A stretch of DNA of 64,000 bases, taken from IMG/VR virus record IMGVR_UViG_3300028629_000007. The stretch is one strand, 5' to 3'. Position numbers and translations under genes: made by a program. This document shows positions 2,541 through 57,527 of the stretch, in pieces. Numbering within the stretch: position 1 is the first letter of the stretch; each line of letters opens with the position of its first letter. Under the pieces are notes generated by a model. It worked only from the letters and a program-made list of their open reading frames with translations, was not told the DNA's origin and did no database searches. The DNA is from a virus.

Positions 2541-2700
2541 TATCAAGTAGCCAAAATTATGTGAACTACCCACCCGCTAAAGCGAGTGGGCTTCAGGTTT
2601 CATAGACACTTCTATTGAAGTCGCCTCCACCTGTTTTTGTTTAGAGTCCGATTTAATTCCTAAACCAGACTTTTGATTTAAACCTTGTTGTAATATATTA
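2541..2700 (-). ncRNA. Predicted omegaRNA (tnpB 3' end plus right-end hairpin) with guide ATAATTTTGGCTACTTGATA
   Basis: Known TnpB architecture; 5' boundary approximate. Confidence 0.6.
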
Positions 2701-3851
2701 AGACTTGCATTTAAGTCTCTATCTATTACTTTTCCACATTGACAAGTCCATTCACGGTCTTTTATATTTAATCCTTCATTAATCCAACCACAATGACTAC
2801 AAGTTTTAGAACTTGGGAAGAAGCGGTCTATTACGACCAATTCTCTTCCATACCATTCTGCCTTATAGTTTAGCTGTCGAACGAATTCACCCCAACCACA
2901 ATTGCCGATTGATTTAGCAAGATTGTGATTTGACATCATACCTTTAACATTCAAATCTTCAATACATATCACTTGGTTTTCGTGAATTAACTTATGTGAA
3001 AGTTTATGTAAGAAGTCTTGACGGTTATTATGTATTTTTTCGTGAACTAATGCTACTTGTTTTCTGTATTTTATTCTACTATTACTCTCCTTTTTCTTTT
3101 TACTTAATTGTCTTTGTGTGAACTTGAGTTTCTTTTCTAACTTATGATAATGTTTGGGATTATCAAACTTATCCCCATTACTACAAACTGCGAAATCTTT
3201 AATACCCAAATCTACTCCTATTGACTCATCATTCTTTGGAAGTTTTTGTATTTCTCCAACTTCACAAGTAATTGAAACAAAATACTTCCCCAATGGAGTT
3301 TTAGAAATCGTAATGAAGTTAATATCTCCTATTTCACGATGAGCATTTAACTCTATACCTTCATTAAACTTTGGAAAGTAAATCTTATTATCTTCAATTG
3401 AAATATGCTGTGGAACTCTAAAAGATTGTTTATCCCATTTACTTTTAAACTTTGGAAACTTACTTTGTTTACGGAAGAAACGATTATATGCTCCATCTAA
3501 ATCTCTTAAAGTATGTTGAAGTGTCTGTGAGTTTATTTCTTTTAACCAAGCAGTTTCTTCTACTTTCTTTAATTCAACCAATTCAGTTGCACAATCATAG
3601 TAATTTAGTGTCTTTTCATTCTTTAAGTATTCGTCTTTTCTTCTGTTTAGGAAGTGATTCCAAACAAATCTCTTACAACCAAAATGCTTGGCAAGTAGCA
3701 CTTCTTGGTCTTTCGTAGGTAGAAGTTGGAATTTAAACGATTTGAGCATATTACTATTATACCACCTTCTAAAGATATTTATACGAGATTTTTAGTTTTT
3801 GTAAAAGTTTCTTTCAAGTAACCACCACTCATTATAAATGGTGGGAATATG
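2561..3851 (-). mobile_element. IS200/IS605-family (IS1341-like) tnpB-only element
   Basis: Right end GAAGCCCACTCGCTTTAGCGGGTGGGTAGTTCAC at 2561; left end TTTAT|CATATTCCCACCA at 3851; no tnpA. Confidence 0.85.
2577..3749 (-). CDS. tnpB: RNA-guided endonuclease TnpB
   Basis: N-terminal HTH, RuvC motifs GVDLG / IEDL / DRDLNA, zinc finger CSHC..CQCG. Confidence 0.95.
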   Translation of the reverse strand: MLKSFKFQLLPTKDQEVLLAKHFGCKRFVWNHFLNRRKDEYLKNEKTLNYYDCATELVELKKVEETAWLKEINSQTLQHTLRDLDGAYNRFFRKQSKFPKFKSKWDKQSFRVPQHISIEDNKIYFPKFNEGIELNAHREIGDINFITISKTPLGKYFVSITCEVGEIQKLPKNDESIGVDLGIKDFAVCSNGDKFDNPKHYHKLEKKLKFTQRQLSKKKKESNSRIKYRKQVALVHEKIHNNRQDFLHKLSHKLIHENQVICIEDLNVKGMMSNHNLAKSIGNCGWGEFVRQLNYKAEWYGRELVVIDRFFPSSKTCSHCGWINEGLNIKDREWTCQCGKVIDRDLNASLNILQQGLNQKSGLGIKSDSKQKQVEATSIEVSMKPEAHSL

Positions 3852-3895
3852 ATAAAAGTTATGTAATGCTTTTATCTACATGGTATAATACAAAC

Positions 3896-43770: not shown

Positions 43771-45378
43771 TTACTGCTTCTGCTCGTACATCTTTGACAT
43801 TTGAGCAGCGTAACGAATCACCCCATCAGACCAGCCTCCTAGTATGAAGGTTCGGTCATAGTTCTCCGGAACCAGCGTATCAGTGTACGAAGCAACCTGA
43901 ACCAAATAAACCATGACCTTCGGGTTGATCTTGCGATACTCCTTGATCAGCTTAGGAACGTGGATATGGTTACTTCCCTTCCAACCATATTCCTTCATAT
44001 ACTGACGAGAACATGCTTCAGTTCCGTACAAGCCACCGTGTCCAGCCTGCATGTCGCTGTAGATGAAGATATGATCCCAATGCTCCTTCTCCTTGATTGC
44101 CTTGTCGAAGAACAACCAGATTCCGTTCTCGGTGCTTCCACCGATCCCATCACCAAGGTTGTTAGCCTTCTTCAAGTCATCGAAGATGGATGAAGACTTG
44201 CGAACCGCGAAGGTTTCAAGCTTGTCACCGAAGACACCAACATGTCCGTTCTCGGCGCACTTTGCAGTGACAACTGCGGTAAGGTTGGCAATCTCGGATA
44301 CCTTGACACTACCATAGGCAGAAGTCATGGTTCCATGAGCAGATCCGGAGTTGTCACAGAGCGACATGACATTACCCTTGAACTGCGGAAGGTTCTTGAG
44401 AGAAATCTTCATGCAGTCTTCAACGGCATCCATGACAGATGACTTACCCTGCGATTCGACTGCCTTGAAGGCACTCCAGTAACGGAACGGAAGCTGCTTT
44501 CCAGTCTCGGCAGTTGCAACAAGCTTATCCAAGTAGACACTGGTATCTACACCCTTCTCTTGGAAGTTACGCAAGTTGCGAAGCAGAGCCATGTGACCCA
44601 TGACTTCGACAGCCTTGGTCCAAGTCTCCTTGGTCGATCCCTCCTTGGAGATGATCGCTTCCCAAGTCTCTCCACTGGACTTCAACTCGCCCTTGGCGAG
44701 CTTACCGATAGCATCAGACTTTGGGTGACAGATGTTCATGACATCGACGGTCTTTACTTGATGTCCCTCAAGACGATACTTCGCAAGCGAGTACTCACTG
44801 CAAGCGGAGAGCGCCTTTGCCCAAGCCTTCTTCAAGGAGTTAGGAATTGGCTTACCAAATGCGGACTTCTGGTAGGCAAGTCCCGTTGCTGGCTCGTCTG
44901 CACGCTTGATGATTTCTGGAGCATACTTCTGAACCAATCCAAGTCCCTTAGCAGACTTGTGGTTAGCAGCACGAACGAGAATGACCTGTGGAGTAACACG
45001 GATGTTGTCCTCGTTACGAAGAGCAACAGCGACCTTGAGAGTCTCTTCGACATTGAACGCAAGAGCCTCGTCAATCGTCTTCTCCATGATTTCCTTCGGA
45101 GACATACCACGCCACTCCTGCGGGTCGATAGCGTCGAGTACGCTACGAAGCTCCTTCACATCGGCATCGGAGAGGCGATAGTCAGGGGCGTGACGAACCT
45201 TACGCTTGTCATCGGCGTCTCGGTTATAGTATTGGGGCTCACCGAAAAAGCACGACGAAGCGGCTATACGGAGCTTGTTAAGTGGGTTCTTAATATCCCA
45301 ACTGGTCCCACCCATATAATTGAGATGAGAGTCCTTGGTGATGTCAACTGGAATCTTCTTTGGGTTAATGCAATTCAT
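43771..45378 (-). CDS. TROVE-domain RNA-binding protein (Ro60/Rsr-like) with vWA domain
   Basis: LRIAASSCFFGEPQYY; YSLAKY; MALLRNLRN; CDNSGS; IYSDMQ. Confidence 0.92.
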   Translation of the reverse strand: MNCINPKKIPVDITKDSHLNYMGGTSWDIKNPLNKLRIAASSCFFGEPQYYNRDADDKRKVRHAPDYRLSDADVKELRSVLDAIDPQEWRGMSPKEIMEKTIDEALAFNVEETLKVAVALRNEDNIRVTPQVILVRAANHKSAKGLGLVQKYAPEIIKRADEPATGLAYQKSAFGKPIPNSLKKAWAKALSACSEYSLAKYRLEGHQVKTVDVMNICHPKSDAIGKLAKGELKSSGETWEAIISKEGSTKETWTKAVEVMGHMALLRNLRNFQEKGVDTSVYLDKLVATAETGKQLPFRYWSAFKAVESQGKSSVMDAVEDCMKISLKNLPQFKGNVMSLCDNSGSAHGTMTSAYGSVKVSEIANLTAVVTAKCAENGHVGVFGDKLETFAVRKSSSIFDDLKKANNLGDGIGGSTENGIWLFFDKAIKEKEHWDHIFIYSDMQAGHGGLYGTEACSRQYMKEYGWKGSNHIHVPKLIKEYRKINPKVMVYLVQVASYTDTLVPENYDRTFILGGWSDGVIRYAAQMSKMYEQKQ

Positions 45379-53208: not shown

Positions 53209-53547
53209 TTATTTCCTTCTCTTCATTTCTTTACTGAGGTTTCCCATCATTAACCTACCACTTAACTTCCAATTGTCAAGAAGTTCTTTCTTGGGCTTGT
53301 CCCACAGAACTAAAGGATTCATTTCGTTGTACCATGCTGTATTGGCAATCATGTCAATCCACTCCTGTCGAGAGAATCTTACGGAGCCAACGGGGCGTGG
53401 TCTATAGTCGTTAAATGTGACATCTCGACCATAACATATATGGTCACTATATTCTTTACTTGTCCACGGATCGAAACAATGAGAAACTCTTTTACGCTTA
53501 GGTTTCAAAGCTTCCTCACGCTTTCCAGTTTCTCCAAGTCGCTCCAA
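53209..53547 (-). CDS. Hypothetical protein
   Basis: ORF track. Confidence 0.6.
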   Translation of the reverse strand: MERLGETGKREEALKPKRKRVSHCFDPWTSKEYSDHICYGRDVTFNDYRPRPVGSVRFSRQEWIDMIANTAWYNEMNPLVLWDKPKKELLDNWKLSGRLMMGNLSKEMKRRK

Positions 53548-54062
53548 TACAGAACTTTCTTTATTCCATATAGCTTGGTGAGCTTAGGATCCTTCCAGCA
53601 TTCGCTTATGTTGCGAGCCAGCGTCACGGTCTTGACATCTATAGTAAAGTAATCGTTCAGTTGACAAAGCATCAAGTAGTCATTTTCAGCAGGATCAGAC
53701 ACTATAGCGTCTTGGACTTGGAAGCTCCATGATAGACCAAAGCGACTCGCAGTTCCTTCCTTCATGCACTTGACATGGAAGAACCATTCTTTAGATCCTG
53801 CTTGGGCAACCAAGTCACTGGCAAATGACTTTTTCTTTTTACCATAAACAGCGAAGTCAACATCAGTAGTGATAGCCATTCCTCGGGCAATGAGAAGTTT
53901 CTTACAGGCTACTTCAGCGAGCTTACCAACCTTGATGTCATCTATTATCTTTGGAATATCTGTCTGGTTTCTTCTTGCATAGCAATCCTTATTCGTCTCC
54001 ACAACTTCAGTGGAGAACTTGGAGCAGACATCATACTCTTCTTCTGTCAGATGGATAATCAT
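53505..54062 (-). CDS. Putative PD-(D/E)XK nuclease-like phage protein
   Basis: GKLAEVA..DF..SFASDL..HVKC. Confidence 0.6.
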   Translation of the reverse strand: MIIHLTEEEYDVCSKFSTEVVETNKDCYARRNQTDIPKIIDDIKVGKLAEVACKKLLIARGMAITTDVDFAVYGKKKKSFASDLVAQAGSKEWFFHVKCMKEGTASRFGLSWSFQVQDAIVSDPAENDYLMLCQLNDYFTIDVKTVTLARNISECWKDPKLTKLYGIKKVLYWSDLEKLESVRKL

Positions 54063-54298
54063 TCGTATAGATGCCTTATGCGTGGTGCATATATCTTAGC
54101 CAGCTTCTTCATGTATTTCAGATTTGTACTTCCACACCAAGGAACCGAAGCAAATCCAATATCACTTACAATATAGTACATCGGTAGACGCAGATGGGGC
54201 ATTCCAACACATTGTGGATTATGTGACGGATGACAGACTCTCTCCCATATTTTACTTTTTCTTACATAATACATTATTCTTCTCTCCATCTCCAGCAT
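54059..54298 (-). CDS. Small basic hypothetical protein
   Basis: ORF track. Confidence 0.55.
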   Translation of the reverse strand: MLEMERRIMYYVRKSKIWERVCHPSHNPQCVGMPHLRLPMYYIVSDIGFASVPWCGSTNLKYMKKLAKIYAPRIRHLYE

Positions 54299-55358
54299 AT
54301 TTGCGTCTTATACCCTAAAGAAACATCTTTCGCCTTTAGATATAATACACATAATGGATTTCTAATAAACATATTTCGTGCATAAAAGTATCTTGGAGGC
54401 GATGCCGTATCACCACTAAACGGAGAGCGCCAATACTTCTGCAATCTAAGCATCTATTATGACCCAATATACTTATTCTACACTATTGTTATGTAAAGTC
54501 AATCGGAGAAGTTCATATCAGTTTGCTTTAGAAATAGTTTCATAGTAAATTTTCCTCTGCACTTTATTTCGTCTTGAAGTTTCTTTTTTCTTGCCTTGAG
54601 GCTACTGAAGCAGTATTTTCTTCCAATGTTAATTGGGGACCAAATATACTGATGCATAATAGAATAATCAAGAAAAGTTTCTCTTGCTAATGTAACGCTT
54701 CCACCACGAGAGTCCAAATGTGATTTTGGATGGGATGTTTGGGAGTCAATGGTAATACTACTACCATAAACAAAAGTTACTAAAAAAATATATGATTGAG
54801 CGTTGTAGCTTGTCTTATGATATTTCATAATATTCCTCGTATTCCACCCATTCTTTGACTTCCCCAATTCTTCCAACCAACTATAAGCTCCTTCTTTCTG
54901 TCCTTGAGAGTTCTCATATTGCATGGAGGTTCTTCGTAGCAACACCACCAACCAAATCCAAATGTTCTTCCAGTAAACACCATACAACATAACCTCGGTT
55001 CTGCTACGAAATGTCTTTTTCTGGGTATGTAAAATGGATATACCCAACGGTTTCTCTTATGATACTTCATGGTATTATATTCATCCTCATCTGCTGATTA
55101 GTTTTCTTATATTTCACGAGTATCAAATCCTACCATAAGGTTGTGTCCATTGGTCTTCCACGCTATCTTCAGGTCTTTTTTATTACTACGCCATATTTCA
55201 ATAAAGCTCCATTCATGCCACCCATTGAAACAATTTCTATCATCCGTGTCAAAGAAACCCGAACGACGAAATACAATTACATTGTAATATTCACTAGAAT
55301 ATGATATTTGTAATTTCTGCTTCTTCATCTTCATAAGAGGCTATTCCCATATCGCATC

Positions 55359-55761
55359 GTGAATACACCCACCCCCTAAAGGGAGTGGGCTTCTAGGTGG
55401 AGTTTCAACCACCAAAGATTATATACCTAATCTTGTCTGTTCTGTTTATGTTAAGTTTCTTTCTACTTTAAGTAGTTGTATATTATAGAGTTATAATTTC
55501 ACACTCATCTTACTTAACGAAATATACAATATATTTGTTTTAACTGTATATAGTTTTACGAGTAGGTCAGTCACTTCCTAACCAGTTATTGGACTTATTG
55601 ACTTTGCCATTAACCTGTAGTATTGTTTCCTACTCAACCTGTCTACATTGTTTTTCAAAGAACTAAGTTAATTGTAACTTGTTATTTTAGAAAGTCAACC
55701 ATCAAGTTACCCACCATTCATCCCATCGGCTAAAGCCAATGGGTTTTCTGGTGGAACGATG
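55359..55761 (-). mobile_element. Non-autonomous IS200/IS605 derivative (MITE-like, no tnpA or tnpB)
   Basis: LE TTTAT|CATCGTTCCACCAGAAAACCCATTGGCTTTAGCCGATGGG; RE GAAGCCCACTCCCTTTAGGGGGTGGGTGTATTCAC; excision restores the host ORF. Confidence 0.9.
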
Positions 55762-55915
55762 ATAAACTTTCCCCACTCTCGGCGTATATAACGCTTCTCT
55801 TCAGTAATCTTTTTTTGACTATCTCTGAATCTAAAGCTAATAATAACTGATATTTTACCAAGATCAAATCCACTTCCGTTGACTCGTATCATGCCAAACC
55901 GTAACTTTTCTACCT

Positions 55916-56098
55916 TCATTGTAATATCTTTTCCAATATTTTGACAGCATCATCAAACGCAATATCATCATGCTCCCTATGTGAATGTATCAATCTACGG
56001 ATTATCTCAAGATACTGAGAGTTCCTGGCACGAAGTCTTTTGACTAGGCGCGATTGCTCTATCTGGTTCTCCAGACTACAGGGGTAGCGAGTCTTCAT
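55916..56098 (-). CDS. Small coiled-coil hypothetical protein
   Basis: ATGA overlap. Confidence 0.65.
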   Translation of the reverse strand: MKTRYPCSLENQIEQSRLVKRLRARNSQYLEIIRRLIHSHREHDDIAFDDAVKILEKILQ

Positions 56099-57230
56099 AA
56101 GGTTTATTATGAGTCATACTCGCGGTTTGTCAAGTGTTGTGTATGCTGTCCCCATAACTTCCAGATATTTCTTAATAAAACTTTATAGTATTTTGGAGTA
56201 ACTCTTATATCTTTGCTCATCTGAATCCCCAATCTTGCAGACCCAAACGCATTACAATCATTTTCCCTAAACCCAACACTTCTAAACACATATGTTCTGT
56301 GACTAAACCACTTCTCCTGAAATACTTTCATACATCACTGCCTGTGTAGAGTAAATACATCAATTCCCTTCCAACACGTTTATAACTATCTAGAACATCT
56401 CTTTTTTTATTCATAGACAGTAGAAAGAAGTCTTCTTTACCAATAACTAGTCTAAGTGGAATTCTGTCGGTAATAGACATACATGACTTGTATTTCCCCG
56501 ATACATGCCACCACTCAAACCAATAGTCATCGTCAATTGCCTTTTCCCCAGAATACGGAACAGTGTAGTTTTTACGATACTTCAGAGCCATTAGTCATCA
56601 TCTCCCATCATACCTCGACCACATTCTTTCCAGATACGACGAAGCTCTATTTTTGGGTTGATGCCTGTTGCTGATAGAAACCCACCATTTCTTGTTTTTA
56701 CATTACATATGTAGATTACTCGTATAACTTTTCTCCCATTCGGAAAAATATACCGAAACTCCAGGGATCTGAAACTACCAAACTTAGATACTTTCATTGT
56801 CTTCCCCATTCCACAAATTATATTCTCTGTATAAATTCTTATAATTTTGTTTTAAGCTTCTTTTTGGGTTGTGATGGCTAAAAAACAAAGGAAAAGATAC
56901 GCCTGTATTTATGTTATTTACATAACAACAATGCAATGTCTCATGGAGCAGTCTAGCAAATACCCTTCTAAAATAAACTCTATAAGTCCTACCACTATTG
57001 TCAAATGGACCTTTACGGACGCCTGTAATATACTTGCTATACTTCATCATATTCCCATGGTATATTCTTCCAGTATCTACGAAGACGCTTTTTGCAACTC
57101 ATGCTGGTCATTCCATTACAGAAATATTTTGGTTTTTGTGTTGATACACTATCTTTTGGACCAACCATCTTGTTCCTATACTCTATTCTCCATACTCCAT
57201 GAAAAAATCTCGTGTATATTTTATTAGTCT

Positions 57231-57527
57231 TCATGCTTTAGCCTTTGGGTCGTGCTTAGGATGAAGTATCGTAACAATCATCTTCGTAGTCTCTGAATAC
57301 ACGCAGTTGAACCAGATGTCTTTATAGGATACATGAATGTGGTGCTTACCATAACCCAATGGCTTCTGGTAGTCTCTTGCCCAGCTATTACCTTGACATA
57401 TCACGCTCATGGCTTTCAAGTCTTCGTTTGATAGCTCAATACCATATCTCTCAAGTGAACGTGAAGCGGCATGAGGTTGCTTGACAACCTCGCTGTAGCC
57501 ATATATCTCTATGCCTTCTTCACTCAT
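57231..57527 (-). CDS. Hypothetical protein within the family C array (different family)
   Basis: HAASRSLERYG..VYSETTKMIVTILHP. Confidence 0.75.
   Translation of the reverse strand: MSEEGIEIYGYSEVVKQPHAASRSLERYGIELSNEDLKAMSVICQGNSWARDYQKPLGYGKHHIHVSYKDIWFNCVYSETTKMIVTILHPKHDPKAKA

Follow-up and report, generated by a model that had tools for sequence, protein, structure and literature searches.

A gene-less IS200/IS605 derivative with base-exact boundaries inside a small gene of a large uncultivated activated-sludge phage

The window analyzed here, a stretch of 64,000 nt from an uncultivated virus (IMG/VR record IMGVR_UViG_3300028629_000007), carries on its minus strand a 403-nt segment (55359-55761, hereafter the mini-element). 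This segment is very probably a gene-less IS200/IS605 derivative, of the kind called PATEs (palindrome-associated transposable elements), residing in a large activated-sludge phage and having entered by the peel-and-paste route with TnpA acting in trans. The original prediction of a 403-bp tnpB-less IS200/605 element with base-exact boundaries agrees both with a natural contig that lacks the segment and with the ends of a family of related elements. The top strand of the element corresponds to the minus strand of the window. The features of the locus are listed below.

55707-55919, minus strand: interrupted host mini-gene, now 70 aa, with its last 18 residues encoded by the left end of the element
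55762-55766, minus strand: target or transposon-adjacent motif TTTAT, kept at the left flank outside the element and retained at the joint of the empty allele
55359-55761, minus strand: gene-less IS200/IS605 derivative, PATE/MITE-like, 403 nt; exactly this stretch is absent from the X17 contig
55744-55761, minus strand: left-end linker, 18 nt from the cleavage point to the foot of the hairpin, as read from the sequence
55747-55744, minus strand: putative left guide G_L, AAAA, the final four bases of the linker, which would pair with C_L TTAT
55722-55743, minus strand: left subterminal imperfect hairpin, with 9-nt arms, a TTTA loop and one T.G position
55671-55698, minus strand: predicted sigma70-like promoter directed towards the element interior (TTGACT and TACAAT, separated by 16 nt; 10 of 12 matches in a scan)
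55396-55434, minus strand: two small stem-loops (55434-55415 and 55413-55396) on the 5' side of the right-end hairpin
55393-55390, minus strand: putative right guide G_R, GAAG, which would pair with C_R TCAC
55389-55368, minus strand: right subterminal imperfect hairpin, with an invariant T.G position; the same module occurs in 34 distinct right ends
55359-55367, minus strand: right-end tail TGTATTCAC, whose last four bases are C_R TCAC, with cleavage after 55359
55339-55358, minus strand: right flank, which together with TTTAT makes up the target in the empty allele

The genes in this part of the window (55,107-55,919) are ordered on the minus strand. In its occupied form the host ORF (55919-55707) ends in ...EWGKFIIVPPENPLALADGMNGG, a tail that also reads ...EWGKF IIVPPENPLALADGMNGG. 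When TTTAT (55766-55762) was joined in silico to 55358, the ending became ...EWGKFMMRYGNSLL*, which gives an ancestral gene of 61 aa with its stop TGA at 55333-55331. This TGA overlaps the ATG (55334-55332) of the downstream ORF 55334-55107, forming ATGA, so that the restored ending expected from the first reading of the sequence was reproduced. Overlaps of 4 bases had also been described as typical of this gene array, and they are its commonest junction (about 15 of 27 junctions, by gene calls). The insertion swapped the final 9 codons of the host gene for 18 element-derived codons, and disrupted the ATGA coupling between this gene and the one downstream.

After TTTAT comes CATCGTTCCACCAGAAAA and then an imperfect hairpin (55743-55722) of 9 bp, closed by a TTTA loop. 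A similarly built hairpin follows about 350 nt downstream (55389-55368), ahead of the tail that ends at 55359. Folded as single-stranded DNA, the left and right hairpins reach z-scores of -3.4 and -2.9. There is also an outer stem around the left hairpin, CCACCA (55754-55749) with TGGTGG (55716-55711), which covaries among relatives, for example to CCGCCA/TGGCGG. The element begins with CATCG... and ends with ...TTCAC, and has no terminal inverted repeats. Besides the tail of the host gene, no ORF of at least 37 aa lies within 55359-55761, and tblastn detected no trace of TnpA or TnpB there. The element's interior, about 250 nt long, is of no recognisable origin and unrelated to tnpA or tnpB.

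A protein search with the 61-aa product of the empty allele matched only the product of the window itself and P0002. The latter (5001-5213 in L106/L107) is an unrelated small phage ORF that runs in frame into a left end of the family and ends in ...KFIILPPENPLALADGMNGG.. It was ruled out as a homologue of the host gene, the likeness being confined to the same tail encoded by the left end. Taken together, the tails of P0002 and of the host ORF indicate that the left end repeatedly gives the genes it interrupts the same C-terminal tail.

The boundaries deduced from the reading frame were corroborated by an allele from nature. The locus was found complete in fourteen 2019 runs from activated sludge, and contigs of four other runs (X15, X16, X17 and X19) were aligned to window positions 53500-57500. 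In X17 (sludge, 2021, another study), a 422-nt contig matches 55762-56132 and passes directly to 55358-55314, skipping exactly the 403 nt of 55359-55761, with matching sides of 45 and 371 nt. At the joint no letters are common to both sides, so that there is neither ambiguity nor a target duplication, and the contig has zero mismatches to 55358-55314. A skip of exactly this length at the predicted position is far beyond chance. It shows that the breakpoint deduced from the reading frame is real and that no target duplication was made, and it provides the relative lacking 55359-55761 that had been proposed as a check. Many nearby sites distinguish the X17 strain from the window, and it therefore represents a separate lineage.

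The X17 allele could also be a donor joint left by precise excision instead of the ancestral state, given that excision of IS200/IS605 elements reseals the flanks scarlessly (PMC3201880) and both histories lead to an identical sequence. We consider this quite unlikely. The X17 strain is a separate lineage, the window has no TnpA to excise the element, and the joined form restores the ATGA overlap, which is the commonest junction of the array and is expected of the original state. Because of this restored overlap, a site in X17 that was never occupied is favored.

In X15, 90% of the words of the element are present, versus 32% for a 1.1-kb stretch that includes the flanks, and one contig terminates exactly at 55359. 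In one X19 contig (on 55358-55518 and 55714-55763), the right portion of the element is separated by 58 other letters from a left end whose interior departs from that of the mini-element after 48 nt; this is apparently a head-to-tail pair of family members in a different context. No contig of X16, X19 or X15 crosses 55358/55359 with window-like flank on both sides, and these runs are uninformative on their allele. Among GenBank phages there was no DNA match either to the locus or to the element.

The ends of the mini-element can be compared with those of IS608 from Helicobacter pylori. In IS608, cleavage occurs 3' of TTAC, 19 nt ahead of the left hairpin, and after TCAA, about 10 nt past the right hairpin, and these sites are recognised by the tetranucleotides AAAG and GAAT, lying 5' of the respective hairpins (PMC3201880, PMC5934647). 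In both elements the subterminal hairpins are imperfect, with a single T that is unpaired or in a wobble pair, and guide tetranucleotides stand 5' of them. The left cleavage site lies outside the element and the right one within it, and neither element duplicates its target. The spacings of the mini-element measure 18 and 9 nt, those of IS608 19 and 10. TT(T)AT takes the place of TTAC as target and the right site is TCAC versus TCAA, while the guides are AAAA and GAAG versus AAAG and GAAT; the mini-element also differs in having neither tnpA nor tnpB. At both ends the fourth position of site and guide differs from IS608, in a manner that preserves Watson-Crick pairing. From their sequence, the ends appear to follow the guide and cleavage code of IS608, as membership of the family predicts.

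According to this mechanism, the element would have been inserted by peel-and-paste in the form of single-stranded DNA, directly 3' of TTTAT and with no duplication of the target. The strand that received it would be the top strand, here the one that codes for a small phage gene. A Y1 (HUH) TnpA acting in trans would recognise both subterminal imperfect hairpins, and would locate the cleavage points by pairing AAAA and GAAG, 5' of the hairpins, with TTAT and TCAC.

The statement that no tnpA is present in the window was confirmed: tblastn with two TnpA proteins of the family detected no Y1 transposase in the window (best E 0.8) or within about 8 kb beyond either end. Neither was a Y1 transposase found in four related phage records, which carry 1-5 tnpB each and of which one measures 459 kb at 91% completeness. 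A gene of this kind is present, however, in an autonomous relative of the mini-element (L054, described below). Mobilisation in trans is thus the natural inference, although the "must" of the original prediction is too strong. Near-identical copies of the mini-element occur in multiple contexts (X15 and other phage contigs). TnpB-driven copying into empty alleles may be an alternative to mobilisation in trans. Which TnpA moved the 403-nt element, and when, is inferred; the enzyme may have come from the host or from another phage.

The mini-element belongs to a family of elements with common ends. A degenerate pattern of the left hairpin region had matches at 7 loci of bacterial and archaeal genomes, at 18 of IMG/VR and at 68 of metagenome contigs. 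The boundary position was defined as TTTAT ending exactly 10 nt before the left-end pattern; TTTAT lies exactly there in 61 of 78 distinct left flanks, and most of the remaining ones fit after a shift of one base. With the right-hairpin pattern, 34 distinct right ends were found. All 34 have TTCAC 2-4 nt past the hairpin, and their flanks are unrelated immediately past TTCAC. Hence TTTAT as target and TTCAC as right end, which had been fixed from the single insertion, hold across the family.

The cargo between these ends is diverse. Several TnpB lineages are represented, IscB genes (RRXRR + HNH) occur as well, and a Y1 transposase is found in two loci (Pfam Y1_Tnp, E 5e-34 and 1e-35). The first of these is L054, a metagenomic tnpA + tnpB element of 1675 nt whose left hairpin is the same as that of the mini-element; its 133-aa ORF is the Y1_Tnp protein (E 5e-34) and adjoins a 385-aa TnpB. 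The L054 contig has a phage-like layout, and its matches to PHROGs are weak. The second locus, L081, has Y1_Tnp together with IscB. The IscB genes (420-541 aa) are found in L017, L022, L026, L027, L060, L068, L080 and L081, where they lie between left and right ends of the same type, on the strand opposite to the top strand. Two jumbo-phage contigs of IMG/VR, G002 (323 kb, 2 tnpB genes) and G003 (459 kb, 91% complete, 5 tnpB genes), have family-type ends with their tnpB genes but lack a Y1 transposase. In one G003 element (L097), an additional ORF of about 130 aa separates tnpB from the left end.

Gene-less short elements of 220-430 nt are recurrent in the family. Some short elements (L038 283-633, L014 1024-1255, L041 and L016) retain pieces of tnpB (the zinc-finger and the last RuvC motif) or of tnpA. 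As intermediate forms, they connect full elements with gene-less ones and show the route by which the latter originate. One full-length relative is a 426-nt copy in an IMG/VR contig (L018 5428-5853; 3300025310_000006), which is 84% identical to the mini-element over its full length. About 27 nt are tandemly duplicated inside this copy, and a 7-nt stretch of the copy in the window is missing from it. Other phage contigs have partial copies that are 88-90% identical, and looser relatives measure 326-351 nt. The exact right end of the mini-element was not found in IMG/VR.

The window harbors a second element of the family:

2561-3851, minus strand: tnpB-only element, with tnpB at 3749-2577, a TTTAT target and a TTCAC end; its left subterminal hairpin is deleted

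The mini-element had been described as sharing its target motif TTTAT and its right end TTCAC with this tnpB element. This is correct for the target and the last five bases, but the left end, the right-end linker and the 3' stem-loops resemble those of another TnpB lineage more closely. The mini-element shares with the tnpB element and with L005, whose TnpB is 88% identical to that of the window, the TTTAT target, the TTCAC end, the type of right hairpin and the orientation. The right-end subtype common to the mini-element and the tnpB element was not found in bacterial or archaeal species genomes. The tnpB element differs from the mini-element in the loss of its left hairpin, in a right linker of 2 nt versus 3 nt, and in a guide-RNA region of another type. 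Its left end folds as single-stranded DNA with a z-score of only -0.5, and TnpA would hardly be able to move an element that has lost this hairpin. L005 keeps the left subterminal hairpin. Comparison of 3790-3865 (minus strand) with L005 4899-4950 shows that about 27 nt were replaced by a short AT-rich stretch. Upstream of tnpB, both the window and L005 have TATAAATA, which we take to be the T4 late-promoter consensus; TATAAATT stands at the same place in L002 and in the second copy of L004.

A TnpB lineage represented by L064, L054 and L097, only 32-34% identical to the TnpB of the window, appears to fit the ends and 3' hairpins of the mini-element better than the tnpB element of the window does. 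The left end of the mini-element is 98% identical to the L064 type over 59 nt. The left end of L005 is 94% identical to that of the mini-element over 52 nt. The right-end linker is 3 nt long in this lineage, as in the mini-element. Model R1, a covariance model built on the L064-type guide-RNA region, hits 55359-55495 with 57.3 bits (E 1e-11), versus 28 bits for the model of the TnpB lineage of the window, the two models having been built on only 5 and 8 sequences.

The last 85 nt of the mini-element consist of the two small stem-loops and the right hairpin. The stem-loops (55434-55396) are the counterpart of the 3' guide-RNA region of TnpB-bearing relatives. This raises a reading that would complement transposition in trans, and which we regard as doubtful: the element would owe its maintenance and spread mainly to a role as a stand-alone guide-RNA (omegaRNA) gene, homing without TnpA. 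A transcript from its own promoter would cross the right end and be loaded by a TnpB from elsewhere. In co-infecting relatives this TnpB would cut the empty allele, made up of TTTAT and the right flank, and recombinational repair would copy the element in.

Several features are consistent with a guide-RNA function. The predicted sigma70-like promoter, close behind the left end, stands at the same position in five of the six short elements of alignment A1, the mini-element included, and both of its hexamers are kept in place despite diverged surroundings. Compensatory changes maintain the three 3' stem-loops, which are under no coding constraint. Across 11 aligned elements, of which five are gene-less, 97% of the cells are paired and 13 pairs have changed on both sides. 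None of 500 shuffles reached these pairing values, and slid registers came nowhere near them. In the two main helices, all 11 pairs keep pairing and 10 of the 11 have changed on both sides. The hit of the TnpB-linked guide-RNA model (57 bits) points in the same direction, as do an RNA fold of the element with a z-score of -5.3, the absence of a terminator ahead of the right end, and the natural empty allele in X17 with an identical flank. PATEs often encode omegaRNAs used in trans, and according to Meers et al. these would need TnpB in trans (PMC10055086).

Other features argue against it. The mini-element does not retain the long-range helix that RNAalifold predicts between an upstream segment and the last 9 nt of TnpB-linked scaffolds. 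Over the window plus about 8 kb on either side, the sole TnpB belongs to the other lineage (about 33% identical; 28 bits), and the scaffold models depend on small sets of 5 and 8 sequences. Judged from its sequence, the mini-element may possibly be a guide-RNA gene. If a transcript passes through the right end, its 3' part would match 55358-55339, which is the flank behind TTTAT in the X17 empty allele. By the known mechanism of TnpB (PMC10055086), the right flank 55339-55358 would then be the guide segment.

A stronger form of the same idea holds that the mini-element is a TnpA-independent phage gene drive. A guide RNA from its own promoter would direct a TnpB of the same or a co-infecting phage to cut the empty allele, and repair would copy the element, along with nearby markers, into the rival. 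We consider this unlikely. Homing of PATEs into co-infecting phages has been discussed as a theoretical case (PMC13565253).

The strong structure of the stretch (z -5.3) and its position inside a coding region would also suit a self-splicing IStron-type element or another structured RNA instead of a plain mini-transposon, and PATEs with IStron ends are known. Against this, the ends are of the ordinary IS605 type and the empty allele at the DNA level accounts for the element. Rfam yielded no match at the gathering threshold; relaxing E to as much as 10 brought up noise alone, with neither a group I intron nor any other family. Since no group I intron was recognised, an IStron-type element is extremely improbable here, and a gene-less IS200/IS605 derivative remains the preferred reading.

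The literature already contains elements of this kind and describes their likely mechanism. Gene-less derivatives of IS200/IS605 elements are known as PATEs, for example those related to ISGst in Geobacillus stearothermophilus (Meers et al. 2023, PMC10055086), and PATEs are also found in Haloquadratum walsbyi (PMC3119063). The mini-element shares with them the lack of genes, a length of a few hundred bases and both subterminal hairpins of TnpB or IscB relatives. Further common traits are insertion 3' of the target motif of the family, a presumed need for TnpA in trans and a guide-RNA region that is often kept. It differs in that it resides in a large phage of lytic appearance and not in a bacterial or archaeal chromosome, and in being inserted within a gene, at its 3' end. 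About 250 nt of the interior bear no relation to tnpA or tnpB, and its 3' scaffold is partly like that of TnpB-linked relatives.

Because its kind and likely mechanism were already described, the value of the mini-element is that of an annotation and a test case, not of a discovery. One set of ends is common to TnpB, IscB, TnpA-bearing and gene-less elements in many large phage contigs, among which the transposase itself is rarely seen. The occurrence of both an occupied and an empty allele in nature provides material to test guide-RNA drive of the TnpB type in phage crosses, which for phages is a theoretical idea to date (PMC13565253).

Some neighboring proteins were also searched. A 185-aa protein has no relatives in IMG/VR, and a 493-aa protein has no record in the assembly index. 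The window also encodes a 535-aa protein with a TROVE (Ro-like RNA-binding) domain (43771-45378, minus strand), whose best phage match is gp540 of Bacillus phage G, with 41% identity.
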